Source of the DNA: a virus
Taxonomy: Duplodnaviria; Caudoviricetes
Reading direction: 5' to 3' (one strand)
Length of the DNA: 29,399 nt
Virus record (IMG/VR): IMGVR_UViG_3300020043_002440
Span: 1-29,399 of that record
Position 1 is the stretch's first letter. Each line of letters starts with the position of its first letter. The notes beneath the pieces are model-generated. The model had not been told where the DNA came from. It ran no database searches and saw only the letters and a list, made by a program, of their open reading frames with translations. Of the stretch, positions 1,705 to 25,257 are shown one piece after another. The position numbers and the translations under genes were made by a program.

Positions 1705-1868
1705 TGTATTAGTTCGTTAAGTCGTTTTATATACTCATCCTTGTTGCGCAATTCATTGAGCAATATATCCGCTGCCACCTTCAGCGGCATGGCTTTCTCG
1801 GCTATGTAAACTGCCAGCACCTTCACAAGTCTCTCATCGCATTCGCAGTCGGTGGCCGGTAGGTTCAT
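1677..1868 (-). CDS. Hypothetical helical protein (63 aa)
   Basis: ATGA overlap with the stop of the HisKA gene; overlaps the start of the next gene. Confidence 0.6.
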   Translation of the reverse strand: MNLPATDCECDERLVKVLAVYIAEKAMPLKVAADILLNELRNKDEYIKRLNELIQCTRAISVH

Positions 1869-2431
1869 ATTTGCCTGGTTGCTTTCTTAACTAATAGCCG
1901 AATCACATCATCAAGCTTGTCAACGCTACTGGCAAGCATCTTCATCACATCATCACGCTCCTGATCCGTTGCATTATTGTGCTCAATCATCATCTTCACC
2001 AAGCCCCCGATTGAAGTCAATGGCTGTCGCAGTTCGTGCGATAGCATGAAGCGGAACTCTTCCAGGAGAATCTTCTGGCGTTCATGTTCATGGTTGCTGA
2101 TGGAAGTCACATCGACAAGCTGAATGCCGATGAAGTGCAGCATGTCAACAATGGAATAAACATTCCACATATTGTACCTCTCAGAGGCCATCTTCTGCTT
2201 TGTCTTGGCATAGGTCCGAATCGGATCGGGCGTTTTCTTCTGCGACTTCCTGATTGCCTGAAGCAGCTCATCGCGGTCGGAATCATTGGCCGCAATGTCG
2301 AGAATGTTGGTAGGCTTTATGTGGCTGCTGTACTCCTTGAATAAATCATTGGAGGTGACGATATTGCCATCCTTATCGGTGATCACATAGAAGAGGTCAA
2401 TTGATGACTCAAGGATGTGCAGGCTTGCCAT
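1865..2431 (-). CDS. PAS-like + HisKA (DHp) protein lacking the HATPase domain (188 aa)
   Basis: H-box FMLSHELRQPLTSIGG followed by a second helix (..SVDKLDDVIRLLV); N-terminal PAS-like ILESSIDLFYVITDKDGNIVTSNDLF; no N/G1/F/G2 boxes. Start reassigned to ATG 2431. Confidence 0.85.
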   Translation of the reverse strand: MASLHILESSIDLFYVITDKDGNIVTSNDLFKEYSSHIKPTNILDIAANDSDRDELLQAIRKSQKKTPDPIRTYAKTKQKMASERYNMWNVYSIVDMLHFIGIQLVDVTSISNHEHERQKILLEEFRFMLSHELRQPLTSIGGLVKMMIEHNNATDQERDDVMKMLASSVDKLDDVIRLLVKKATRQI

Positions 2432-2435
2432 ATCG

Positions 2436-2443
2436 CAAAGATA
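2436..2443 (-). promoter_or_regulatory. -7 promoter box, probably giving a leaderless transcript of the HisKA gene
   Basis: TATCTTTG-CGAT-ATG. Confidence 0.65.
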
Positions 2444-2460
2444 AGGCAAGGATTGAACTT

Positions 2461-3095: not shown

Positions 3096-3554
3096 TCAGA
3101 AGTTACAAAGTGAGAAGTACAGATTAGCCTCTTCGCGGCGGCGGTTTGTTAAGCCGTTAAGGATTTTTCCGCCTGCCTTGTTCCACTTCAGGAACTCATC
3201 CAAGATGCTTGGGTCTGCGGCGTTTGCTTTGGCCTTCTTGAGCAGCGTGGATTTCACCAACGCACCAGTCCCCACGTTGTAGCTAAAGGCCACAAGCGCA
3301 TCGAACTGGCATTGGTTAAGGTTAGGTAAATGCTTATTTACAGCGTCCTCATAGGGCGAAAGCGTAGCGAGCAGCAATTGTGTTGCTTCCTTTTCGTTAT
3401 TGAGTTTCTCACCCAGTAGCACCTTCTTGCCGTTTGGATGGCGAGAACTGCCGTAGCCAATTGTCGGAACGCCAGCAGGGCAAAGGTAGGAACTAAGCCG
3501 CAAGCCCTCGTACTTCTTAATCAGATTTAGACCTAGAAGCGAGGTGGAGCGCAT
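3096..3554 (-). CDS. Endolysin, GH24 phage lysozyme
   Basis: EGLRLSSYLCPAGVPTIGYG catalytic motif, QFDALVAFSYNVG, STLLKK, GLTNRRREEA. Confidence 0.95.
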   Translation of the reverse strand: MRSTSLLGLNLIKKYEGLRLSSYLCPAGVPTIGYGSSRHPNGKKVLLGEKLNNEKEATQLLLATLSPYEDAVNKHLPNLNQCQFDALVAFSYNVGTGALVKSTLLKKAKANAADPSILDEFLKWNKAGGKILNGLTNRRREEANLYFSLCNF

Positions 3555-7497: not shown

Positions 7498-8535
7498 TTA
7501 CGGCAGGGCTGTCACATATTTCATGTTCTTTCTGCAATCCCAGCAATGCGTGTCATCAGGCAGGCGCATGTTCTGCAACATTGCGCCAAGCTCTTCGCCG
7601 TAGCGTGTTGCTGCGATGTCACGGGCTGCCATAATTCCCTCCATTAGTTCGGGCTTGTTTTGGCCCCTATTCACAATTACAGAAGTATTCACCCTTTGGT
7701 TAGGGCTTATGGTCAGCGCATAGTTGTAAACCTCAACAGCGGTGGCGTATGCAAGCGGCAAGGCCATCAGCCCACCGATTGAGCACATCCATCCTTGGCG
7801 GTCGCAGTTGATGCTATATGTCAGGCTCATGCCTGTGGTGTACTTACTTGAGCTGCTTGTCAGCACGTTCGTTCCATCGGTAGTCAATTCAATCCCGATC
7901 GCATCCACGAAAGGGCAAATGTGCGATTCTCTTGGACCGCCTCCGCAAGAAGTGCATGTGCCCTTCTTTGGAGTGAACTTCACAGTATTGATGTCCGACT
8001 CGTACACGATTGCAATGTCAAGCTTGCGCTTTGCTGAGGTGAAGGTCTTGCCGATAAACTGGTCCAATGCACCCTCTGCATAAGTGATCGTCTCAAGCAA
8101 CTTGCCTGTGGTCATGTCGAAGATAAGCACCGGCACATTCACATTCGCTGAAGCAATTGCCAGGTTAATATCTGCAAGGTAGAAGTTGAGGTATGAAACC
8201 GTATTCGGGTCAATCTTCAATCTGATGCCACCATAATTGCCAGCACCAAGTGCATTCTGCACATTGGCATAATTGGACACAACTTGTCCAACTCGCTTGT
8301 TCTCAATCACAGTGTCGCTCTTCATCATTGGACTGAGCTTAGTCAGTACATCGGATGAGATTTTGCGCCATGCGAAGGCTCGCTTATCTTCAAACAGCTC
8401 AACGCCGTTGAGATACTGGTCCGTGATAAGTTGCCCTAAGAATGTCTGATTGATTCCGAGGTCATCAATGTAGAGCCCTGTCGATGGCTCTGGTGATTCG
8501 CAGCCTCTCAATCCGAGTAGTGATTCAATGCACAT
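7498..8535 (-). CDS. Putative head-tail adaptor / structural protein (345 aa, Cys-rich)
   Basis: First gene after the major capsid; helical ends with a beta insert; ends CWDC. Confidence 0.5.
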   Translation of the reverse strand: MCIESLLGLRGCESPEPSTGLYIDDLGINQTFLGQLITDQYLNGVELFEDKRAFAWRKISSDVLTKLSPMMKSDTVIENKRVGQVVSNYANVQNALGAGNYGGIRLKIDPNTVSYLNFYLADINLAIASANVNVPVLIFDMTTGKLLETITYAEGALDQFIGKTFTSAKRKLDIAIVYESDINTVKFTPKKGTCTSCGGGPRESHICPFVDAIGIELTTDGTNVLTSSSSKYTTGMSLTYSINCDRQGWMCSIGGLMALPLAYATAVEVYNYALTISPNQRVNTSVIVNRGQNKPELMEGIMAARDIAATRYGEELGAMLQNMRLPDDTHCWDCRKNMKYVTALP

Positions 8536-8550: not shown

Positions 8551-8558
8551 CAAAGATA
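8551..8558 (-). promoter_or_regulatory. -7 promoter box overlapping the terminator U-tract
   Basis: TATCTTTG 15 nt upstream of ATG 8535. Confidence 0.6.
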
Positions 8559-8584
8559 AAAAAAAGGAGGGCACGAAGCCCTCC
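8558..8584 (-). terminator. Intrinsic terminator of the capsid transcript
   Basis: GGAGGGC-TTCGT-GCCCTCC-TTTTTTTT. Confidence 0.9.
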
Positions 8585-8586
8585 CT

Positions 8587-8676
8587 TTATTGCGTGGTTA
8601 GATTATCTAATCCGTCCTGGGTCAATAAGTCCTCATCGGCTTGCGAGAGTAAACCTACCGACCCGATTACGGGTTT
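8587..8676 (-). other. Putative programmed -1 frameshift cassette giving a 27-aa C-terminal capsid extension
   Basis: Heptamer A_AAC_CCG (8676-8670), 5-nt spacer, 12-bp stem (8664-8653 with 8630-8619); -1 frame reads VIGSVGLLSQADEDLLTQDGLDNLTTQ-stop and ends 2 nt before the terminator stem. Confidence 0.75.
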
Positions 8677-9710
8677 ACGATAGAAACGCAGTTCACATAG
8701 TTAACACCAGCGAACTTGTCTGCTGATTCGTAGATGTCAGTCGGAAGAGTTACAATCTTTCCAGTTGTAGTCAACACGATTGACAAGTTACCACAGTCAT
8801 CCTTCATGGTCAAGTCAACAGGAACTCCAGCCGGTGTGAACACCAAAGTCTTAGAGTAATTGCTTCCAGCCACAGGAGTGATGCCAGTGTTCCAATCAGC
8901 AAGGTTGAAAGATAACCACTGGATTGCTCCGGCAGTTGTCACCAACGCGCTGTTTTGGTCTCCTTGAGCAGCAGCCAAACGAGAATCGTAAGCAAAGCCG
9001 AAACCGTTCTGCTGAGTGATTGCAAGAAGGTCTAAGCCGTACTGAGAGCAGCAGCCTGCTGCCATCGCATTAGCATAACGCTGCATTGCTGCGCCACCGA
9101 ATGCAACTGGTGCACCAGGATAGTTCGCCATGCGAGTTGCTTGCTGGATGTCAGCGATTGCAAATGGATTCGGCTCAGTTGTGCCATTCATTGTAGCAAT
9201 CTCCAAGCAGTCACCAGTTACAGTGTAGAAACCTTCTACATCAGTTCCCCACTTTCCGATGTCAGCAACAGCTTGAACAGCAGCAGCAGAAGCAACTTTG
9301 CGGTCGATTACGTCCATCAAGCGCATTACTGACTCAAGCACATAGCGTGAGTTCTCCTGGCAATGACGAGCGATATCAGCAGCATTGATAAGCTGTGATG
9401 CAGTGTAAGTGTCAGTCGTATCAACTGTGTAAGTTGTAGTGCTGTCACCGTAAGTGTTGGTTGAAGTACAAGTAAGGATGTCACCACCCTCTTCAACTTC
9501 GGTCTCAGGCAAACGCTGAATCCAACGTGCTTGAACGGTTTTTAATTTTCCACCGCCTGGAGATACTTCAGTGCGGATAAGTTTTGCGTTCTCAGGTGAA
9601 AGTAAGAACTCAAGAAAAGGAAGTTGCTCACGCTGACCAACTTCGATGAAGAGCTCACTAAGTGACATTTGCACATTAGGACACTCCGATAGAATGCGAG
9701 ATATAGACAT
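8667..9710 (-). CDS. Major capsid protein (347 aa)
   Basis: Size, position downstream of portal and scaffold, own promoter and strong terminator. Confidence 0.8.
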   Translation of the reverse strand: MSISRILSECPNVQMSLSELFIEVGQREQLPFLEFLLSPENAKLIRTEVSPGGGKLKTVQARWIQRLPETEVEEGGDILTCTSTNTYGDSTTTYTVDTTDTYTASQLINAADIARHCQENSRYVLESVMRLMDVIDRKVASAAAVQAVADIGKWGTDVEGFYTVTGDCLEIATMNGTTEPNPFAIADIQQATRMANYPGAPVAFGGAAMQRYANAMAAGCCSQYGLDLLAITQQNGFGFAYDSRLAAAQGDQNSALVTTAGAIQWLSFNLADWNTGITPVAGSNYSKTLVFTPAGVPVDLTMKDDCGNLSIVLTTTGKIVTLPTDIYESADKFAGVNYVNCVSIVNP

Positions 9711-9809: not shown

Positions 9810-9817
9810 CAAAGATA
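9810..9817 (-). promoter_or_regulatory. -7 promoter box for the major capsid gene
   Basis: TATCTTTG directly after the terminator U-tract. Confidence 0.65.
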
Positions 9818-9818
9818 T

Positions 9819-9852
9819 AAAAAAAAATGACTGCCGTCGCTTGCAGTCATTT
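9819..9852 (-). terminator. Intrinsic terminator
   Basis: AAATGACTGC-AAGCGACG-GCAGTCAT running into a T9 tract. Confidence 0.85.
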
Positions 9853-9885: not shown

Positions 9886-9917
9886 CAAAGATACTAAGGC
9901 AGTTCGATTTTTCCAAA
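9886..9917 (-). promoter_or_regulatory. Bacteroidota promoter (-33/-7)
   Basis: TTTG (9917-9914) - 20 nt - TATCTTTG (9893-9886). Confidence 0.65.
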
Positions 9918-10166
9918 AAAAGGTTTGTCGCTTACTGACCTTTTGCCTTCGCAGCTCCAAAGCTGCCGAGCCCACCAATTCGCTGAGCCTTTCTCAGAAG
10001 AGATGCCAGCACTACGAGCACAGTAAGAATTCCCTGCATCTGTGCCTGGCTTAATCCGATAGCCTTCAGCACCAAAGTGAATCTCATTGCCCTCATCGTC
10101 TACTGCCTTATATTTCTTCCCAACACGTTCCGAGGAGGTGACATTGAAACCTTCATACTGTGGCAT
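9894..10166 (-). CDS. Conserved small viral protein (DUF6321/DUF5754-like)
   Basis: GKKY...IHFGAEGY...SYCARS...SANWWARQLW pattern. Confidence 0.6.
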   Translation of the reverse strand: MPQYEGFNVTSSERVGKKYKAVDDEGNEIHFGAEGYRIKPGTDAGNSYCARSAGISSEKGSANWWARQLWSCEGKRSVSDKPFFGKIELP

Positions 10167-11277: not shown

Positions 11278-12189
11278 TTAATCATAAAACCCTTCGGCTC
11301 TTGCTCTTGCTTTTACCGTCTCCGGCACCTTACGATCAGGCACTGGCACCAGATAGTGTCGACAATTCCACCCACCCACTAAAGTGAAGATTGACTTGCT
11401 ATCTGTGCCATCAATGCGCCCAGCCCAAGTGCCGTCACGTATGTCTCTTATGCCTCCGCTATTCTCTCCATCTCCCCACGCTTCAATCTCTTTGCGGTGA
11501 AATATCTGCCCCTCACGATGCTCGCAGAAGGGCCGCGTTGTTGGTATCTCCCCACCAAGGTACTCGAACCATTGAATCCCAAGTTCGTCATTGACAGCCG
11601 CTGAATAGCTTCTGTCTGCAACGGCTTGCGCGGTTGTGGCTGTGGTCTTGATGTTGGCAAGTAGCCTGCCGTCATTTGTCTCTGTGCCCGTGACAATTCC
11701 CTCCAGTGCTGCAACGGTCTCGCGTAGTGGTGACCTTGCTGCGATGTTGGTGGTAAGCTGCTCAAGGAATGGCTGCGTGAATCTTGCATCCAAGCCTGCA
11801 CCAAAGAAAGTGTTTATTGCGTTCTGCTTGCTCAGTTGCAGCAATTGCTTCTGCACCTCTGTTGGCTCGAATGAACTCTCGAATGTCTGGGCAATCTCAT
11901 TGGTGAGTTGCACGCCTTCATCAATCGAACCAAGGAATGCACGCACGGCTTCGCGGTATTCACTGCCTGCAAGTACCTTCTTGAGCTCATCGCTGATGAG
12001 TGCAATGCGCCTTATGTTGCCTTCAGTCTGCTCGATGTTTCCAGCAGCGGTGACATCCATGTCCTCCAAGATAGGGCGAATCTTTCGCCATATCTCAGCT
12101 TGAGTTTTCTGCGCAGCCGTTGCCAGCTTCTCAGGCACTGACTCGAACAGCGCAATCTTGTCTTTGACTAACTTATCAAATGATGCCAT
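11278..12189 (-). CDS. Head morphogenesis / minor capsid protein (Mu gpF / SPP1 gp7-like)
   Basis: YLGG..TTRPFC...GGWNCRHYLVPV motif; immediately after the portal. Confidence 0.8.
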   Translation of the reverse strand: MASFDKLVKDKIALFESVPEKLATAAQKTQAEIWRKIRPILEDMDVTAAGNIEQTEGNIRRIALISDELKKVLAGSEYREAVRAFLGSIDEGVQLTNEIAQTFESSFEPTEVQKQLLQLSKQNAINTFFGAGLDARFTQPFLEQLTTNIAARSPLRETVAALEGIVTGTETNDGRLLANIKTTATTAQAVADRSYSAAVNDELGIQWFEYLGGEIPTTRPFCEHREGQIFHRKEIEAWGDGENSGGIRDIRDGTWAGRIDGTDSKSIFTLVGGWNCRHYLVPVPDRKVPETVKARARAEGFYD

Positions 12190-14083
12190 TCAGAAGCTCC
12201 TGTTGCGCCTGTTGAATCGGATCGAGTTGCGTGCCTATCTTATCCGATGCCAAGCGATTCAATGCAGCAATCTGCTCGCTCATTGGTAGGTCGATAAAGC
12301 GAGGCGCATCTTCAGTCGGAATGTAGTTGCGGATGAGCTCCATGATTAGCTGAGGTGCGCTGTGGTGAATCACATCTTGATACTTCTCAACCGTTCCATT
12401 TGCAACGCGCAACGCGATGTCTGCGCTACTCATCAGCAGCAACTCATCGGCATTTATAATCAAATCGTAAATCGCTGATGTCTCTTCATCCGTGTAGTGA
12501 ATTGCTCGGATATAGTTGTAGACATTGCTGAAGGTAATTGATGGCGGCACTCCAGCCTTAACGCCTTCGCAGATAACAGCAAGGTAGTCGCTCGGAGTCG
12601 ATATGTCAAAGGATGTTGGATATACCAAGTTGATGCCTCCAAAGAATTCGCCATATCGCATTTGCCCCATTGTCACCAAGCAGAACTCATACAAGTTGAA
12701 TAGCTGGTCTGAGATAGGCTTAATGAAGGCATACAGCGCACGCAGCTTGTTCAATGAGCCTGTTGCAGTCGATGCTTCGCCAATGGTTCCGCTTTCGTCA
12801 GATGATGGCAAGTGCAATATTCTGCGAGCCTTCGCCATCTGCTGCTCAATCTCTGTGCGCAGAAAGTTCAGCGTGTCCATTGGTGGGCTCACGAACTTGA
12901 GGTACTCACCAGATAGAGCACTGTCTCCTTCGCTCAATGCGGTCTTTGGCTTGATGAGTAGCATCCCTGTCGGGCTGAATCTGCTCTTCACACCTGAGCC
13001 ATTACAGCTTGAGCATGTCCGGTACCCTCCGTTAATCGGGTCAAAGATTTGACCGTCTTGGCACTTGTTGCCTTCGCGGTCGATGAACTCGCAAATCTCG
13101 CCAAGCGCAACCATGAAAGGGAAGGCACTTGTCGCTTTGCTGATTTGCAAATATGACTCATCGAGAATCACCTGGTCCAACAATGGCACAGCCGTGATGA
13201 ATGGAGACTGGAATGCAATCTCTCCATTGATGAGCTGAGGCGTGCCTTGAAGCTTCTGCGCAGGCACATATCCAAGGTTGTGCTGATAGTAAAGCACAGG
13301 CTCTGAGAATTGCATGTCGGACTTCTTGCCGTACTGATACACCTTCCAAATTGCTTCGGTGTCGTATATCTCAAGCACAAGCCCTGAATGCTCCATCTTG
13401 CTGCCGACCTTCACCTCACTCTTGTCATCAGCAATCACCATGTAATACTCTCCGAATTTCTGCCCCACGATGCTCTTGCAGGAATAATATTCCGGCATCG
13501 GCTTGATAAGTTCATTGCTGATTATCTCTTCTCCTTCTTCATTCTCGATGGTGTCAACATCTTGCGGCTCGATTGCAATGATTCCATTCGGGTCAATCAG
13601 CTTCAATGTTGGCAGCATGGTCTTGACAAACATCTCCAAGGAGCCGAACTTCTCAATCTCGTTATTCACATATCGCTGGAAAGTATCATCTCCAAAGATT
13701 GGCTCAAGCTCTGGCGTGTAGCGGATGGACCAGTTCTGGTCTGCGAAGGCGCGGCTTATCGTGGCCTTGAAGTCCTCGAACACACTGAGTGTTGTGGGCT
13801 TGTAGTTGGCTCGGATGTACTCAGCCTGCGCATCAGTCTGATTCGGGGCTCTCACTGAGAGCAAGTGAGCCGGGTAAATGTCAGGCCGGGTATGCGGCAA
13901 AATGCTGTCATACATCTTAGCGGCATAGTTATACCCCGGCCAATACTCAGGATATTGAGATACACCTGTGCGCTCCTTAGTGATGGGGTTTATGGGTGAG
14001 CTCTTCGCAGCCGTCTCCCATCCCTTGTACTGGTAAGCGAACTTGCGAACAATCTTGTCAATGTCCTCAGTAGATAGTGCCAT
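12176..14083 (-). CDS. Portal protein (635 aa) with a Cys-rich insert
   Basis: Size, position before the gpF-like gene, helical C-terminal half with YPTSFD; C-x9-C...CSSCNGSG insert. Confidence 0.7.
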   Translation of the reverse strand: MALSTEDIDKIVRKFAYQYKGWETAAKSSPINPITKERTGVSQYPEYWPGYNYAAKMYDSILPHTRPDIYPAHLLSVRAPNQTDAQAEYIRANYKPTTLSVFEDFKATISRAFADQNWSIRYTPELEPIFGDDTFQRYVNNEIEKFGSLEMFVKTMLPTLKLIDPNGIIAIEPQDVDTIENEEGEEIISNELIKPMPEYYSCKSIVGQKFGEYYMVIADDKSEVKVGSKMEHSGLVLEIYDTEAIWKVYQYGKKSDMQFSEPVLYYQHNLGYVPAQKLQGTPQLINGEIAFQSPFITAVPLLDQVILDESYLQISKATSAFPFMVALGEICEFIDREGNKCQDGQIFDPINGGYRTCSSCNGSGVKSRFSPTGMLLIKPKTALSEGDSALSGEYLKFVSPPMDTLNFLRTEIEQQMAKARRILHLPSSDESGTIGEASTATGSLNKLRALYAFIKPISDQLFNLYEFCLVTMGQMRYGEFFGGINLVYPTSFDISTPSDYLAVICEGVKAGVPPSITFSNVYNYIRAIHYTDEETSAIYDLIINADELLLMSSADIALRVANGTVEKYQDVIHHSAPQLIMELIRNYIPTEDAPRFIDLPMSEQIAALNRLASDKIGTQLDPIQQAQQELLNGII

Positions 14084-14163
14084 TATGCAACTGCTTTAGT
14101 TGTTGATTGTACAATTACGTGCGAGCCGCATGACTTGCTGCGGCAGAAGTTGATTGGTTTCAT
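14083..14163 (-). CDS. 26-aa microprotein MKPINFCRSKSCGSHVIVQSTTKAVA
   Basis: Exactly fills the gap: ATGA overlap upstream, TAATG overlap with the portal start. Confidence 0.6.
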   Translation of the reverse strand: MKPINFCRSKSCGSHVIVQSTTKAVA

Positions 14164-14729
14164 GGTTTCTGAATTAGCGAAAGGCCACGCCCCTCGGATG
14201 TGTTTAATGTGATGACGTTGTACTTGTAATACTTTGCATACTCCATCAGCTTCTTAACATCAGGAATATGAATTGTGTCATGATAGGCAATGGTTCCGCC
14301 CGGCTTGATCATGCGCTCAACTTCTTTGAACTCCGGCAAGATATTCGCCCAGCTATGGTCTCCATCGACAAAGATGAAATCAAACTGTCTCGGCTTCATA
14401 CCTTGCATCACCTTGATTGATTCGCCAAGGATGAAATCAACCTCAGCCCCGAATGTAGTCAGGTCATGCTTCAAGTAGTTGTTTATATCGATGCCGGTAT
14501 ACTTGCCGCCATATGGCAAGGCTGCAATCATCTTGACTGAAGTCTCGCCTTCGAATACTCCAATTTCAAGCACATTTGCTGCGCCTGTCATCTTGATTAG
14601 TGATCCGATGAATTCGCACACATCAACTTCACTGTTCCACTCATTGCGAGCAACCTCGGTGAATGTCTCGGTTATTACAATCTTCTTAGGCCGTCCGGCT
14701 TTCTTTGGCTTATCTTCTTGGGTCTGCAT
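14160..14729 (-). CDS. Class I SAM-dependent methyltransferase (Methyltransf_24-like, probable O-methyltransferase)
   Basis: VLEIGVFEG, GIDI, FDFIFVDGDH, IKPGGTIAYHD motifs; start reassigned to MQTQED (14729). Confidence 0.85.
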   Translation of the reverse strand: MQTQEDKPKKAGRPKKIVITETFTEVARNEWNSEVDVCEFIGSLIKMTGAANVLEIGVFEGETSVKMIAALPYGGKYTGIDINNYLKHDLTTFGAEVDFILGESIKVMQGMKPRQFDFIFVDGDHSWANILPEFKEVERMIKPGGTIAYHDTIHIPDVKKLMEYAKYYKYNVITLNTSEGRGLSLIQKP

Positions 14730-15630
14730 GTTTGTGGTCTGTAATTCTGTGAATAAAGTATTTATGCTGGAGGCCATCTTCTTGCATCCATGCTTTAAGT
14801 TTTCGATCAAGCCAGTCAATGTAAAAGCTTGGCGTGAATCCTTTGCCGCCATAGTAACTCATCAAGTAGAACCGTTCTTCAATCTGGTTGAATGTAAACT
14901 CTCTGTTCATCTGGAAGCATACCACATCAATCTCATACGGCTTGAATTTATTCTTGCCGAATGAAACATTGAAGTACAATTCATCAGGCTGACCACCGCC
15001 CCACTTCATTCGAAGCTTGGCAAGCGGAAGCGGATTGTTGAGGTACAAATCGGCAGCCGTTCTGAATATCGCCTCTGCCTCATCGCACTTCTCAATGAAC
15101 TGGATGCTGCTATTGATAGCGTATATCTTGTCTTCCTTAGACAGCCCGAAATGCTGCCACAGAGAATCGGCCCACGCCCATTGCATCTCTTTGAAGTCTC
15201 GGCCCTTGTCGATGGTGTGCTCGCCAACAACTCGCGTGGCATACTTCGCATCGTTAGCAATTAGCTGCTCGATGAGAGGCTGCAAGTCCTTCAAGCAGAC
15301 TGCATCAACATCGAGGTAAAGATTGTAGTGATACGGCAAGTAATCGTACAGAAGCACCTTGGCCTTGCCCGGATCTAATTTCTTGTTCGTGTATATGTGC
15401 TGCTCAGGCAGTTCAACAAAGGTGTCGATGCATTGGCCCAGCTCGTGGCAATGATACACAGCACGCTCGCTACTATCGCAAATTAAAGCGATAGGCAGTG
15501 CGGCATTAAATCGCTTAATCGAATAAGCGAGGTTATAAGCAGCCCAGTAATACTGAGGCTTGCCAAATGCCACAAGCACCACCCCTTGCGAGGTAGTGCC
15601 TTGGCCTTGAATGTTTGAAGAACTATCCAT
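14710..15630 (-). CDS. GT-A fold glycosyltransferase (GT8-like)
   Basis: KAKV..YDYLPY..NLYLDVD (DxD), INSS, PDELYFN motifs. Confidence 0.75.
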   Translation of the reverse strand: MDSSSNIQGQGTTSQGVVLVAFGKPQYYWAAYNLAYSIKRFNAALPIALICDSSERAVYHCHELGQCIDTFVELPEQHIYTNKKLDPGKAKVLLYDYLPYHYNLYLDVDAVCLKDLQPLIEQLIANDAKYATRVVGEHTIDKGRDFKEMQWAWADSLWQHFGLSKEDKIYAINSSIQFIEKCDEAEAIFRTAADLYLNNPLPLAKLRMKWGGGQPDELYFNVSFGKNKFKPYEIDVVCFQMNREFTFNQIEERFYLMSYYGGKGFTPSFYIDWLDRKLKAWMQEDGLQHKYFIHRITDHKHADPRR

Positions 15631-23651: not shown

Positions 23652-23983
23652 TCTAAACATTCGAGCAAGTTTATGGTTTGTGGTTCGTCAACGTCCATGT
23701 TCACAACGCTGAAGCTGATGCAGTCATACAGCACATCGCAGATGCTGAACTGGTCACAGTTCAACCTGATGGTGTACCCTTGCAGCGCATCCATCTTCGC
23801 CCCGATGATCGTGATGATGCCATCGATGTCAGATGTCACCACGAAGCTTTGAATCCGCTTGGTGGCATTGTGCGTGATGGTAACGGTGTATTCAGTTTCA
23901 GGCGTAACCAAGCCGAAGCTGATGCCTGCATTGCAAGCCGCTACATTGATGCCCGAATCAAAACATGGAGTACAAACGCTCAT
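23645..23983 (-). CDS. Hypothetical Cys-rich beta protein (112 aa)
   Basis: ATGA overlap with the terminase stop (MSVCTPC...). Confidence 0.65.
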   Translation of the reverse strand: MSVCTPCFDSGINVAACNAGISFGLVTPETEYTVTITHNATKRIQSFVVTSDIDGIITIIGAKMDALQGYTIRLNCDQFSICDVLYDCISFSVVNMDVDEPQTINLLECLEC

Positions 23984-25257
23984 AGGTAACGCTTTAGGAT
24001 TGCGTTCACAAAGTAACGAAAACAATCTAAAAAGTCAGCACGCTCAGCAATATTTTTCCTGTTCGTCTTGATGATACCACCATTCGCATCGCACTGCACT
24101 TGCTTCGCATCAAACACGAATCCCTTGCACCGCTTGGAGTTCACGCGGATATCCAACTTGCGCAGCGCAGCATTGCAATCGATTCGGCTGTTGTAGTGCG
24201 TTGGGTTTGCTGGAATCAGAAACTGGCTGTCACTCATGCCGAGCCGCCGCTTGATCTGCGTGTACGCGCTGGAGTTGTCACGCTGTTGCACTGTGCCGCC
24301 CTTGCCCATCGCATCACCCGTTATCCTGATGAGGCCCATCGGCACGCCAAGCGCAAGCACCGCATCGCAGAACGCATCCACGCTGCCCTTCTCAATCTTT
24401 ATCTCATCCACCACCACTGCGCCCCTGCCAACGTGCTGAATCACCAGAGCACAAAGTGGATTGATGTTAAAGTCGACAGAGACATGCACCGGCACATTGC
24501 GATTCAGCTGCACGCTGTCATCGATGTGCTTCTCATCAGCCCACTCATACAGGAAAGGATTCGCAACGTCATCCATCACATCCCAATCGCCCTCCACGAA
24601 TCTTGCGTACTGGACCGGTGGCAGTTCCTTCAAGCTTTCGAGGTACTCAGCAGGGATGTGAGGGTTGTCAGTTATCTTGGAAGGAATGAAGCTCCAACGC
24701 TCAGGCAATGTGCCCTCCTTGTAGCGTTCATAGATTATGCTCTTCACCCAGTTGTTGGCCGGGTTGCACGTTGCCATGCAGACAATCGGCGGCCTGCCTT
24801 CAGCCTTGTTCCAAGATCCGATGCGCTCCTGCACCTTGTAGAATGTCTGCTCCTGCAACTCATTCACCTCATCAAGCCCTGCGCCATTCACCTCAAGCCC
24901 CTTGAAGCGGTTGAGGTCCTTGTCATCATCGTAACTCTCGGCCATGAATAGCAACTCCGATCCGTTTATGAACGTCACAACTTGAGTGTCTCGGTTCCAA
25001 CTCTGCACGTACTGGTTGATGCCGTCATCGAGAATTGCGCTGAAGCTTGGGAAGGTTGTGCGCTTCAGGTCCGGCAGGCTGCGGCGAATAATCACCCAGC
25101 GGCTGCGCGGATATTCCAGTGCAAGGTAGCTGAGAGTCAGCAGCAGCCAATAAGTTTTTCCACCTCTAATCGCGCCTCCAAACACCACCACGCGATGAGT
25201 GCCTGCCGTTGCCTGGTTAAATGCTTTGGTTTGCCTCTTAGTTAAACTGAAGGCCAT
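23980..25257 (-). CDS. terL: Terminase large subunit
   Basis: Walker A GGAIRGGKT, Walker B GAGLDE, motif III TCNP, DNPH, RNase H-like VSVDFN. Confidence 0.95.
   Translation of the reverse strand: MAFSLTKRQTKAFNQATAGTHRVVVFGGAIRGGKTYWLLLTLSYLALEYPRSRWVIIRRSLPDLKRTTFPSFSAILDDGINQYVQSWNRDTQVVTFINGSELLFMAESYDDDKDLNRFKGLEVNGAGLDEVNELQEQTFYKVQERIGSWNKAEGRPPIVCMATCNPANNWVKSIIYERYKEGTLPERWSFIPSKITDNPHIPAEYLESLKELPPVQYARFVEGDWDVMDDVANPFLYEWADEKHIDDSVQLNRNVPVHVSVDFNINPLCALVIQHVGRGAVVVDEIKIEKGSVDAFCDAVLALGVPMGLIRITGDAMGKGGTVQQRDNSSAYTQIKRRLGMSDSQFLIPANPTHYNSRIDCNAALRKLDIRVNSKRCKGFVFDAKQVQCDANGGIIKTNRKNIAERADFLDCFRYFVNAILKRYL

Follow-up and report, generated by a model that had tools for sequence, protein, structure and literature searches.

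Does the major capsid protein gene of an uncultured lake phage encode one product or two? The question is raised by the 3' end of a gene on the minus strand (8667..9710) of the IMG/VR virus record IMGVR_UViG_3300020043_002440; this whole stretch of DNA (29.4 kb, with a completeness estimate of 84%) is the sequence analysed in this study and is referred to as the window. Read in its own (0) frame, the gene encodes a product of 347 amino acids. An initial annotation, made from the letters of the window alone, had proposed that a hidden -1 ribosomal frameshift adds a further peptide to this product. Comparative analysis of the gene and its relatives supports the proposal, since the slippery heptamer, the RNA stem and the -1 frame are all conserved. 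The conserved combination of the heptamer A_AAC_CCG, a stop codon and a hairpin suggests, with a probability of about 0.8, that a share of the ribosomes slips into the -1 frame and so adds a 27-residue acidic peptide to the capsid protein.

Arrangement of the proposed frameshift locus in the window

On the minus strand the capsid gene ends with ...GTT TCT ATC GTA AAC CCG TAA. The last four of these codons had been singled out as containing an X_XXY_YYZ heptamer, and the sequence bears this out: A_AAC_CCG (8670..8676) is in phase, its 0-frame codons are AAC (Asn346) and CCG (Pro347), and the 0-frame stop TAA (8667..8669) follows it directly. From 8676 on, the -1 frame reads KP followed by the 27 codons of the extension (8590..8670, minus strand), VIGSVGLLSQADEDLLTQDGLDNLTTQ, which contain four aspartic acids and one glutamic acid and no lysine, arginine or histidine. 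The extension is closed by a TAA stop (8587..8589, minus strand) that abuts the transcription terminator, in agreement with the proposal of 27 added amino acids ending at that point. The open -1 stretch ahead of the heptamer begins no further upstream than 8700; it reads LCELRFYRKP and is without ATG, GTG and TTG.

A stem beginning 5 nucleotides (nt) past the heptamer and open to lengthening had also been described. RNAfold gives a 13-base-pair (bp) outer stem together with a 6-bp inner stem after a 5-nt spacer (8619..8664, minus strand), and this structure, a candidate stimulatory RNA hairpin, lies within the coding sequence of the extension. Its outer stem pairs 8664..8652 with 8631..8619 and includes G-U pairs. 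The segment 8685..8545 has a total minimum free energy (MFE) of -48.7 kcal/mol (z = -4.1), and none of 200 shuffled sequences folds as well. RNAfold and a pattern scan predict an intrinsic terminator of the capsid transcript at 8562..8588 (minus strand), consisting of an 11-bp stem and a T-run (GGGAGGGC...GCCCTCC).

Judged on the single sequence of the window, a heptamer with an open -1 frame is not above chance. The 26 open reading frames (ORFs) of the window contain 19 in-frame X_XXY_YYZ heptamers in 8179 codons; three of the 26 have a heptamer within three codons of the stop, and in 16 of the 26 the -1 frame is open for at least 27 codons past the stop. As the pattern in one sequence stands at chance level, the case rests on the comparative data.

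Occurrence of the extension among relatives

The IMG/VR database was scanned three times, with the capsid protein of the window and with homologues that share 60% and 67% identity with this protein, and 168 loci were obtained. Together with the window these made 169 sequences, 166 of which were usable and represented 124 unique contexts of 430 nt with capsid identities of 58-100%. Outside the 166 were L032, with little downstream DNA, L087, which is truncated, and L088, which was read by hand. An extension was scored as present when the -1 frame was open for 24-28 codons from the codon spanning the 0-frame stop (25-29 from the heptamer) and when the peptide ended in Q, E, N, GS or GG and contained no FF. 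By this heuristic the extension occurs in 101 of the 124 contexts and not in the other 23, where only a short spacer and the terminator are found. Long -1 frames (22-41 codons) do occur in nine of these 23, where they run through the terminator into the next gene and are unlike the peptide. Fourteen further loci beyond the 124-context set all carry both heptamer and extension; the distant capsid gene of L088 (37% identity) has neither.

The peptides of the 101 contexts are homologous, 25-29 amino acids long, related and acidic. Representatives from the different clades are VIGSVGLLSQADEDLLTQDGLDNLTTQ, ITSSQNLLSEGSDDLLSEGSDNLLTQ, VLSPEALLLQDGEFILLQNDDLLNLQ, VIGSVSILQENGEGILSQDGTDITTEGS and VSPDFLISKEFQDGFAFQFQSGEDFDFQ. 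Comparison of these peptides revealed three units of a hydrophobic pair, any residue and glutamine or glutamic acid, turns rich in aspartic acid, glycine and asparagine between the units, a net negative charge and almost no lysine or arginine; the units may represent strand-turn-strand elements. The extension matched no domain family. The suggestion that a short acidic peptide is found here in place of the immunoglobulin (Ig)-like domain often appended to capsid proteins agrees with the length range in all 101 contexts, because 27 residues are too few for an Ig domain.

None of the 101 contexts has the extension fused in frame with the capsid protein. The 145 homologues found in databases are all unnamed or labelled hypothetical and none has the extension; among the 120 of them listed, no in-frame fused form occurs, and the four longest are longer at the N terminus only. 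As no 0-frame fusion occurs in any context, a mixture of short and long forms, and not the long form alone, seems to be kept.

Selection on the -1 frame

The distance from heptamer to extension stop in 77 unique extensions is 81, 84, 87 or 90 nt, all differences being multiples of three. Among the 55 unique extensions of 84 nt, the variable columns number 19, 12 and 26 of 27 at codon positions 1, 2 and 3, respectively. The pairwise ratio of nonsynonymous to synonymous differences per site (pN/pS) is 0.29 for the -1 frame, compared with 0.90 and 1.66 for the other two registers. The same holds for the nine codons past the hairpin, which lie outside the main stem pairing (0.30, compared with 0.88 and 1.95). 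Within the three distant clades, third positions take 8-9 of the 15-16 differences in four of seven pairs.

Stop codons tell the same story. The -1 frame contains none in 101 of 101 contexts, and in both other frames they are frequent. One group of relatives has undergone a change from TAA TCG to TCA TAG, which has moved the 0-frame stop by one codon and is silent in the -1 frame (GTA ATC to GTC ATA, both Val-Ile). The stop of the extension itself is TAA in 63 contexts, TGA in 26 and TAG in 12, and is located 14-31 nt before the T-run of the terminator in 98 of the 101. These comparisons of sequences indicate that the -1 frame is under purifying selection as a protein across relatives with 58-100% capsid identity. 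The initial annotation had named conservation of the heptamer, a covarying stem and an open -1 frame in relatives as its own decisive test, and the test came out in its favour.

Conservation of the heptamer and of the hairpin

A_AAC_CCR is kept in 98 of the 101 extension-bearing contexts, compared with 4 of the 23 extension-less ones, which mostly read GTT AAT CCA, GTT AAC CCT, GTA AAT CCT and similar at this site. The first heptamer base stays A while the residue to which it belongs varies, the codon being GTA (Val) in 73 relatives, GCA (Ala) in 22 and ACA (Thr) in 3. The last base is G in 83 of the 98 and A in 15; a pyrimidine is found in none of the 98. In 89 of the 98 no codon separates the heptamer from the 0-frame stop; in eight the stop comes one codon later and in one it comes two codons later.

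Synonymous changes were counted on a tree of 91 full-length extension-bearing genes. At 72 conserved four-fold codons the third position has undergone a median of 13.5 changes, and not one of the 72 shows a single change or fewer; at 74 two-fold codons the median is 9. The 12 other asparagine codons have 4-14 changes and the eight other proline codons 9-26. The three synonymous positions of the heptamer have 3, 1 and 5 changes, and those at the last position are exchanges between G and A only. By this measure the synonymous positions of the heptamer are nearly frozen, and across the relatives they are held fixed only where the extension exists. It was also observed that the last base, always a purine in the presence of the extension, often gives CCT in its absence, the opposite of the C_CCY preference of Escherichia coli.

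Covariation of the hairpin was analysed for the 19 pairs of the window in 68 sequences of the main clade. The pairs are formed in 85.8% of cells, compared with 75.3% in shuffles (none of 500 reaching the observed value) and 30-53% when the partners are slid by 1-3 columns. Changes on both sides occur at 12 of the 19 pairs, and the covariation score is 0.374, compared with at most 0.194 in the controls. RNAalifold independently found nine pairs of the outer stem, and seven of these show compensatory changes. For every clade, the representatives are predicted to fold a hairpin 3-6 nt past the heptamer, even where the stem sequences are unrelated; in L082 the MFE structure includes a further, weak helix on the outside, with the main stem beginning at nt 7, and in L018, which has a 6-nt insertion, the main stem begins at nt 10. 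The pattern of substitutions indicates that the hairpin is kept by compensatory changes.

Proposed route of the ribosome into the -1 frame

On the sequence evidence, tandem -1 slippage stimulated by the hairpin is the best-supported mechanism. The tRNA-Asn would re-pair from AAC to AAA and the tRNA-Pro from CCR to CCC in tandem, the slip being stimulated by a hairpin that would resist unwinding. Termination after a C-terminal proline is slow or poor, and slow termination at the Pro-stop junction may add a pause, although the role of the stop is a guess. Decoding would resume at GTA and give ...SIVNP-VIGSVG...TTQ, a protein of 374 amino acids. Most ribosomes would terminate normally, so that the short form would predominate in the capsid and the long form would be the minor one, as for 10A and 10B of phage T7. 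C-terminal fusions to the T7 coat protein are displayed on the outside, and by analogy the tail would be located on the capsid surface.

Several observations weigh against this mechanism, or against the importance of its product. Four relatives keep the heptamer and have no extension, and the rule by which an extension was scored as present is only a heuristic. Three extension-bearing relatives with 99% capsid identity (L005, L006 and L008) end in AAY GTC CCG TAA (...V-N-V-P) and thus have no heptamer, only C_CCG before the stop. In all three the extension and the hairpin are intact, with differences from one relative to another, and because the -1 frame has a TAA two codons upstream, only C_CCG can serve as a shift site. 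This leaves two readings, a loss of shifting in these variants or a shift that can do without tandem slippage, and it suggests a possible contribution of a pause at the Pro-stop junction. An unrooted tree of 123 contexts shows 10 state changes for the extension and 11 for the heptamer. In seven independent pairs that differ in the extension, the heptamer changes in the same way in 4-5, in the opposite way in none and not at all in 2-3, so that the association between heptamer and extension is weak once corrected for the tree (sign test, p = 0.0625, not significant alone). Clades that bear the extension contain nested sequences without it, and homology of the peptide extends across the deepest branches; on this unrooted tree repeated loss is therefore the simplest reading. 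The extension appears to have been lost about 10 times and hence to be dispensable, which makes it probably an accessory. No cultured relative was found by tblastn against 50,697 phage records.

The behaviour of the heptamer in E. coli also speaks against efficient shifting. According to the excerpted text of Sharma et al. 2014 (PMC4066793), most heptamers (61 of 64) proved frameshift-prone in E. coli in the presence of the IS3 pseudoknot, and A_AAC_CCA was one of the three that stayed below the threshold of twice the background despite this strong stimulator. Going by those excerpted data for A_AAC_CCA, the heptamer of the window (A_AAC_CCG, in a host other than E. coli) is not of the class shown to shift efficiently. 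This bears out the caution of the initial annotation that CCC is an atypical YYY triplet and that efficiency may be low. The site does resemble those of E. coli in fitting X_XXY_YYZ and in having a hairpin at typical bacterial spacing. It departs from them in that the family conserves A_AAC_CCR, with CCY in none of 98, though C_CCY shifted better than C_CCR in E. coli in the excerpted data. Possibly A_AAC_CCR is kept since little of the long form is needed, or since the tRNAs of the host behave differently, or since the stop helps. Literature on AAACCCG in connection with frameshifting contained no phage capsid site among the matches listed.

The three heptamer-less relatives do not form one group on the tree, which points to recurrence or recombination. 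Types of extension and hairpin (VIGSVG and VIGLMS, for example) are interleaved among closely related capsid genes on the 123-context tree, and the cassette therefore seems to be exchanged by recombination independently of the body of the capsid gene.

Alternative explanations

The closest competitor of tandem slippage is a genuine shift made by a single tRNA in the P site, where the peptidyl-tRNA-Pro would slip from CCG to CCC while waiting at the stop and AAA would be helpful only. Such a slip is all that the three lineages ending in AAY GTC CCG TAA have to offer, and a stop placed directly after the heptamer in 89 of 98 contexts suits it as well. It is nevertheless unlikely, as it does not account for the near-invariance of the first A and of AAC (not AAT) at synonymous positions in 98 contexts, which only tandem slippage explains. 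Where the stop lies one or two codons further on (9 of 98) the heptamer is still kept, and the tetramers C_CCG and C_CCA shifted near background in E. coli in the excerpted text of Sharma et al. 2014 (PMC4066793). A coding signature of the kind found here shows translation and not the route by which ribosomes enter, and the overlap of the 0-frame stop with the first extension codon (GTAA) would also suit a free small peptide, made by non-canonical initiation or by re-initiation after termination of the capsid protein. Such independent initiation is very improbable because the open -1 stretch before the extension contains an ATG, GTG or TTG in just 5 of 101 contexts, with no conserved start among them, and because the first extension codon is GTA or ATA. 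A free peptide would furthermore leave unexplained both the selection on A_AAC_CCR and the hairpin 3-6 nt past it, and a hairpin over the start would hinder initiation.

Could the region be translated only in appearance? The hairpin is the strongest local feature and covaries, and the -1 frame is open over the required length behind most ORFs of the window (16 of 26), so a non-coding element of the 3' untranslated region, consisting of a stabilising hairpin ahead of the terminator, might be imagined, the open frame being a by-product of RNA constraints and shared ancestry. This is hardly credible in view of the nine codons past the hairpin, with their low pN/pS and three-base periodicity, of indels that are all multiples of three, of a -1 frame free of stops in every extension-bearing context while stops are frequent in the other frames, and of a heptamer whose conservation is tied to the presence of the extension; in addition, no Rfam family reaches its gathering score. 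Frame breaks in homopolymer-like runs are common in sequencing, and an assembly or sequencing indel could in principle have split one capsid gene of 374 amino acids, or slippage of RNA polymerase could restore the frame. The likelihood of either is practically negligible: the same arrangement recurs on many separate IMG/VR records, which provide 101 non-redundant contexts, and a fused gene occurs in none of these contexts, and the AAACCC run is too short for known transcriptional slippage. Contigs from RNA libraries (three of four runs) span the heptamer without an indel, which is a weak argument, as contigs drop rare variants and libraries can hold DNA. Tandem slippage at the heptamer thus remains the preferred explanation.

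Identity of the capsid protein

The designation of the 347-amino-acid ORF as major capsid protein was at first unproven, as neither Pfam nor PHROGs gave a match and a sequence-profile search of the PDB returned chance-level matches only. It is now supported by the predicted fold. An AlphaFold2 model built on an alignment of 60 homologues has a predicted local distance difference test (pLDDT) score of 77.2 and a predicted template modelling (pTM) score of 0.77, and contains a 30-residue helix at residues 120-149, the length of a spine helix. Comparison of the model with the PDB by Foldseek revealed 198 chains at E<=0.001, with TM-scores of about 0.45-0.55. The best matches are the capsids of mycobacteriophage Douge, cyanophage A-1(L), Klebsiella phage Kp9, lambda and phi29, together with encapsulins. 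The ESM Atlas pointed to PF20036 (Gp13-like), which is taken as a lead only. In gene order the portal gene is followed by an ORF of 273 amino acids in the position of a scaffold gene (a candidate by position) and then by the capsid ORF. On the basis of the fold of the model, the Foldseek matches and this gene order, the ORF is assigned as a major capsid protein that has the HK97 fold and belongs to a so far undescribed family.

Comparison with known frameshifted capsid proteins

Gene 10 of phages T7 and T3 resembles the present locus in that a -1 shift near the end of the major capsid gene gives a minor coat protein, extended at its C terminus, from the same mRNA; here this is predicted from sequence. 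The slippery sequences are G_GUU_UUC in T7 and C_CCA_AAG in T3. Both differ from A_AAC_CCG, which forms the last two sense codons of its gene and is followed by the stop at once. The T7 extension, at about 50 amino acids, is longer than the 27 found here; it is dispensable, and in this respect 10B and the repeatedly lost tail of the lake phages are alike. Sequence relation to T7 and T3 is not detectable (no PHROG or Pfam match). In Lactobacillus phage A2 the heptamer is reportedly C_CCA_AAA, which is of the efficient class, unlike A_AAC_CCR.

The existence of frameshifted capsid isoforms, for which the initial annotation had cited T7 gp10B, is confirmed by the excerpted text of Atkins et al. 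2016 (PMC5009743). It gives long coat forms made by -1 frameshifting for T7, T3, Lactobacillus phage A2 and the Listeria phages A118, A500 and PSA, and describes most coat extensions as Ig-like and that of T7 as not Ig-like; the latter is a further resemblance to the extension described here. The same excerpts attribute the two capsid forms of A2, gp5A and gp5B, to a -1 shift right at the end of the gene for the major head protein, where a stem-loop lies downstream; a similar origin of two forms is proposed here. The A2 extension is Ig-like and its long form essential (PMC5009743, as excerpted), whereas the peptide of 27 amino acids has been lost about 10 times. Fraser et al. 2006, as cited in the excerpted text of Atkins et al. 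2016 (PMC5009743), reported Ig-like domains appended by frameshifting to structural proteins of phages. These are likewise C-terminal additions to capsid or tail proteins via a programmed frameshift, and with about 80-100 amino acids they differ from the 25-29 found in 101 of 101 contexts. The present arrangement is thus of a kind already known (T7 10A/10B, A2 gp5A/5B), and it is the heptamer and the payload of 27 amino acids that differ.

A wider interpretation can be offered only tentatively, and we doubt that all of it is right. A_AAC_CCR may be a genuine shift site tuned to its host, possibly a member of the Bacteroidota, and working together with the Pro-stop pause and the hairpin, in which case the rules for slippery sites would differ between phyla. 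The acidic repeat of 27 amino acids, with its hydrophobic-pair-x-Gln units and Asp-Gly turns, would be a new kind of capsid surface tag, for example a strand-donating docking site for another virion protein, and not a folded display domain. As a payload, an acidic peptide of 27 amino acids is unusually small, and the repeated losses suggest that the benefit of the extension is conditional. Gene callers give only the 347-amino-acid product in this widespread clade of lake phages, so that the second isoform, if real, is absent from every annotation. About a hundred natural variants of one cassette are available, with compensating stems, one-codon moves of the stop, heptamer-less forms and losses followed by decay of the heptamer. 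As the heptamer is non-shifty by the rules of E. coli, the hierarchy of slippery sites across bacterial phyla becomes directly testable.

Neighbouring genes and hints of the host

The genes surrounding the capsid locus all share its orientation (minus strand). Genes for a terminase (23980..25257), a portal protein (12176..14083) and a lysozyme (3096..3554) were identified in the window, and no tRNA gene was found in it. Directly 3' of the capsid gene lies an ORF for a protein of 345 amino acids (7498-8535, minus strand), which has no match in Pfam or PHROGs. Matches to this protein spanning at least 70% of its length were found by tblastn in 122 of the 124 relatives, namely in 99 of the 101 extension-bearing contexts and in all 23 extension-less ones, and a homologue also lies 3' of the 37%-identical capsid gene of L088. 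Among five neighbouring proteins examined by tblastn, there is none whose presence tracks the extension.

The motif TAnnTTTG, which we take to be the -7 promoter element of Bacteroidota, occurs 15 times on the gene strand of the window and five times on the other strand, an enrichment that hints at a Bacteroidota host. One copy (TATCTTTG; 8551..8558, minus strand), possibly a Bacteroidota-type promoter element, is 23 nt upstream of the start of the next gene, and another (9810-9817, minus strand) is 107 nt before the start of the capsid gene. Hairpins resembling intrinsic terminators flank the capsid gene on the minus strand, one at 9825-9852 and one at 8562-8588; a TAnnTTTG motif comes after each of them, and the capsid gene therefore appears to be its own transcription unit. 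The single match in a scan of genome contigs (L184), with a 95%-identical capsid gene, is a 5-kb contig in a metagenome-assembled genome labelled Bacteriovoracaceae; it reads GTT AAT CCA TAG and has neither heptamer nor extension. The label is probably a binning artefact, and Bacteriovoracaceae were not used as a host.

Just upstream of the capsid gene an ORF of 90 amino acids (9894-10166, minus strand) is placed like the decoration gene D before E in lambda. It has a marginal Pfam match to DUF5754 (28.2 bits against a cut-off of 27.4) and gave no tblastn match in seven extension-less relatives of one clade. An ORF of 194 amino acids (1865-2449, minus strand) gave a match to the histidine kinase phospho-acceptor domain HisKA, with E = 8.5e-8 and a score of 32.6 bits, the cut-off being 26.9. 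Finally, the ORF of 306 amino acids (15630..14710) and the methyltransferase ORF in its longest reading (14852..14160) share 143 nt at 14710-14852 on the minus strand, an overlap that is probably due to a mis-set start.

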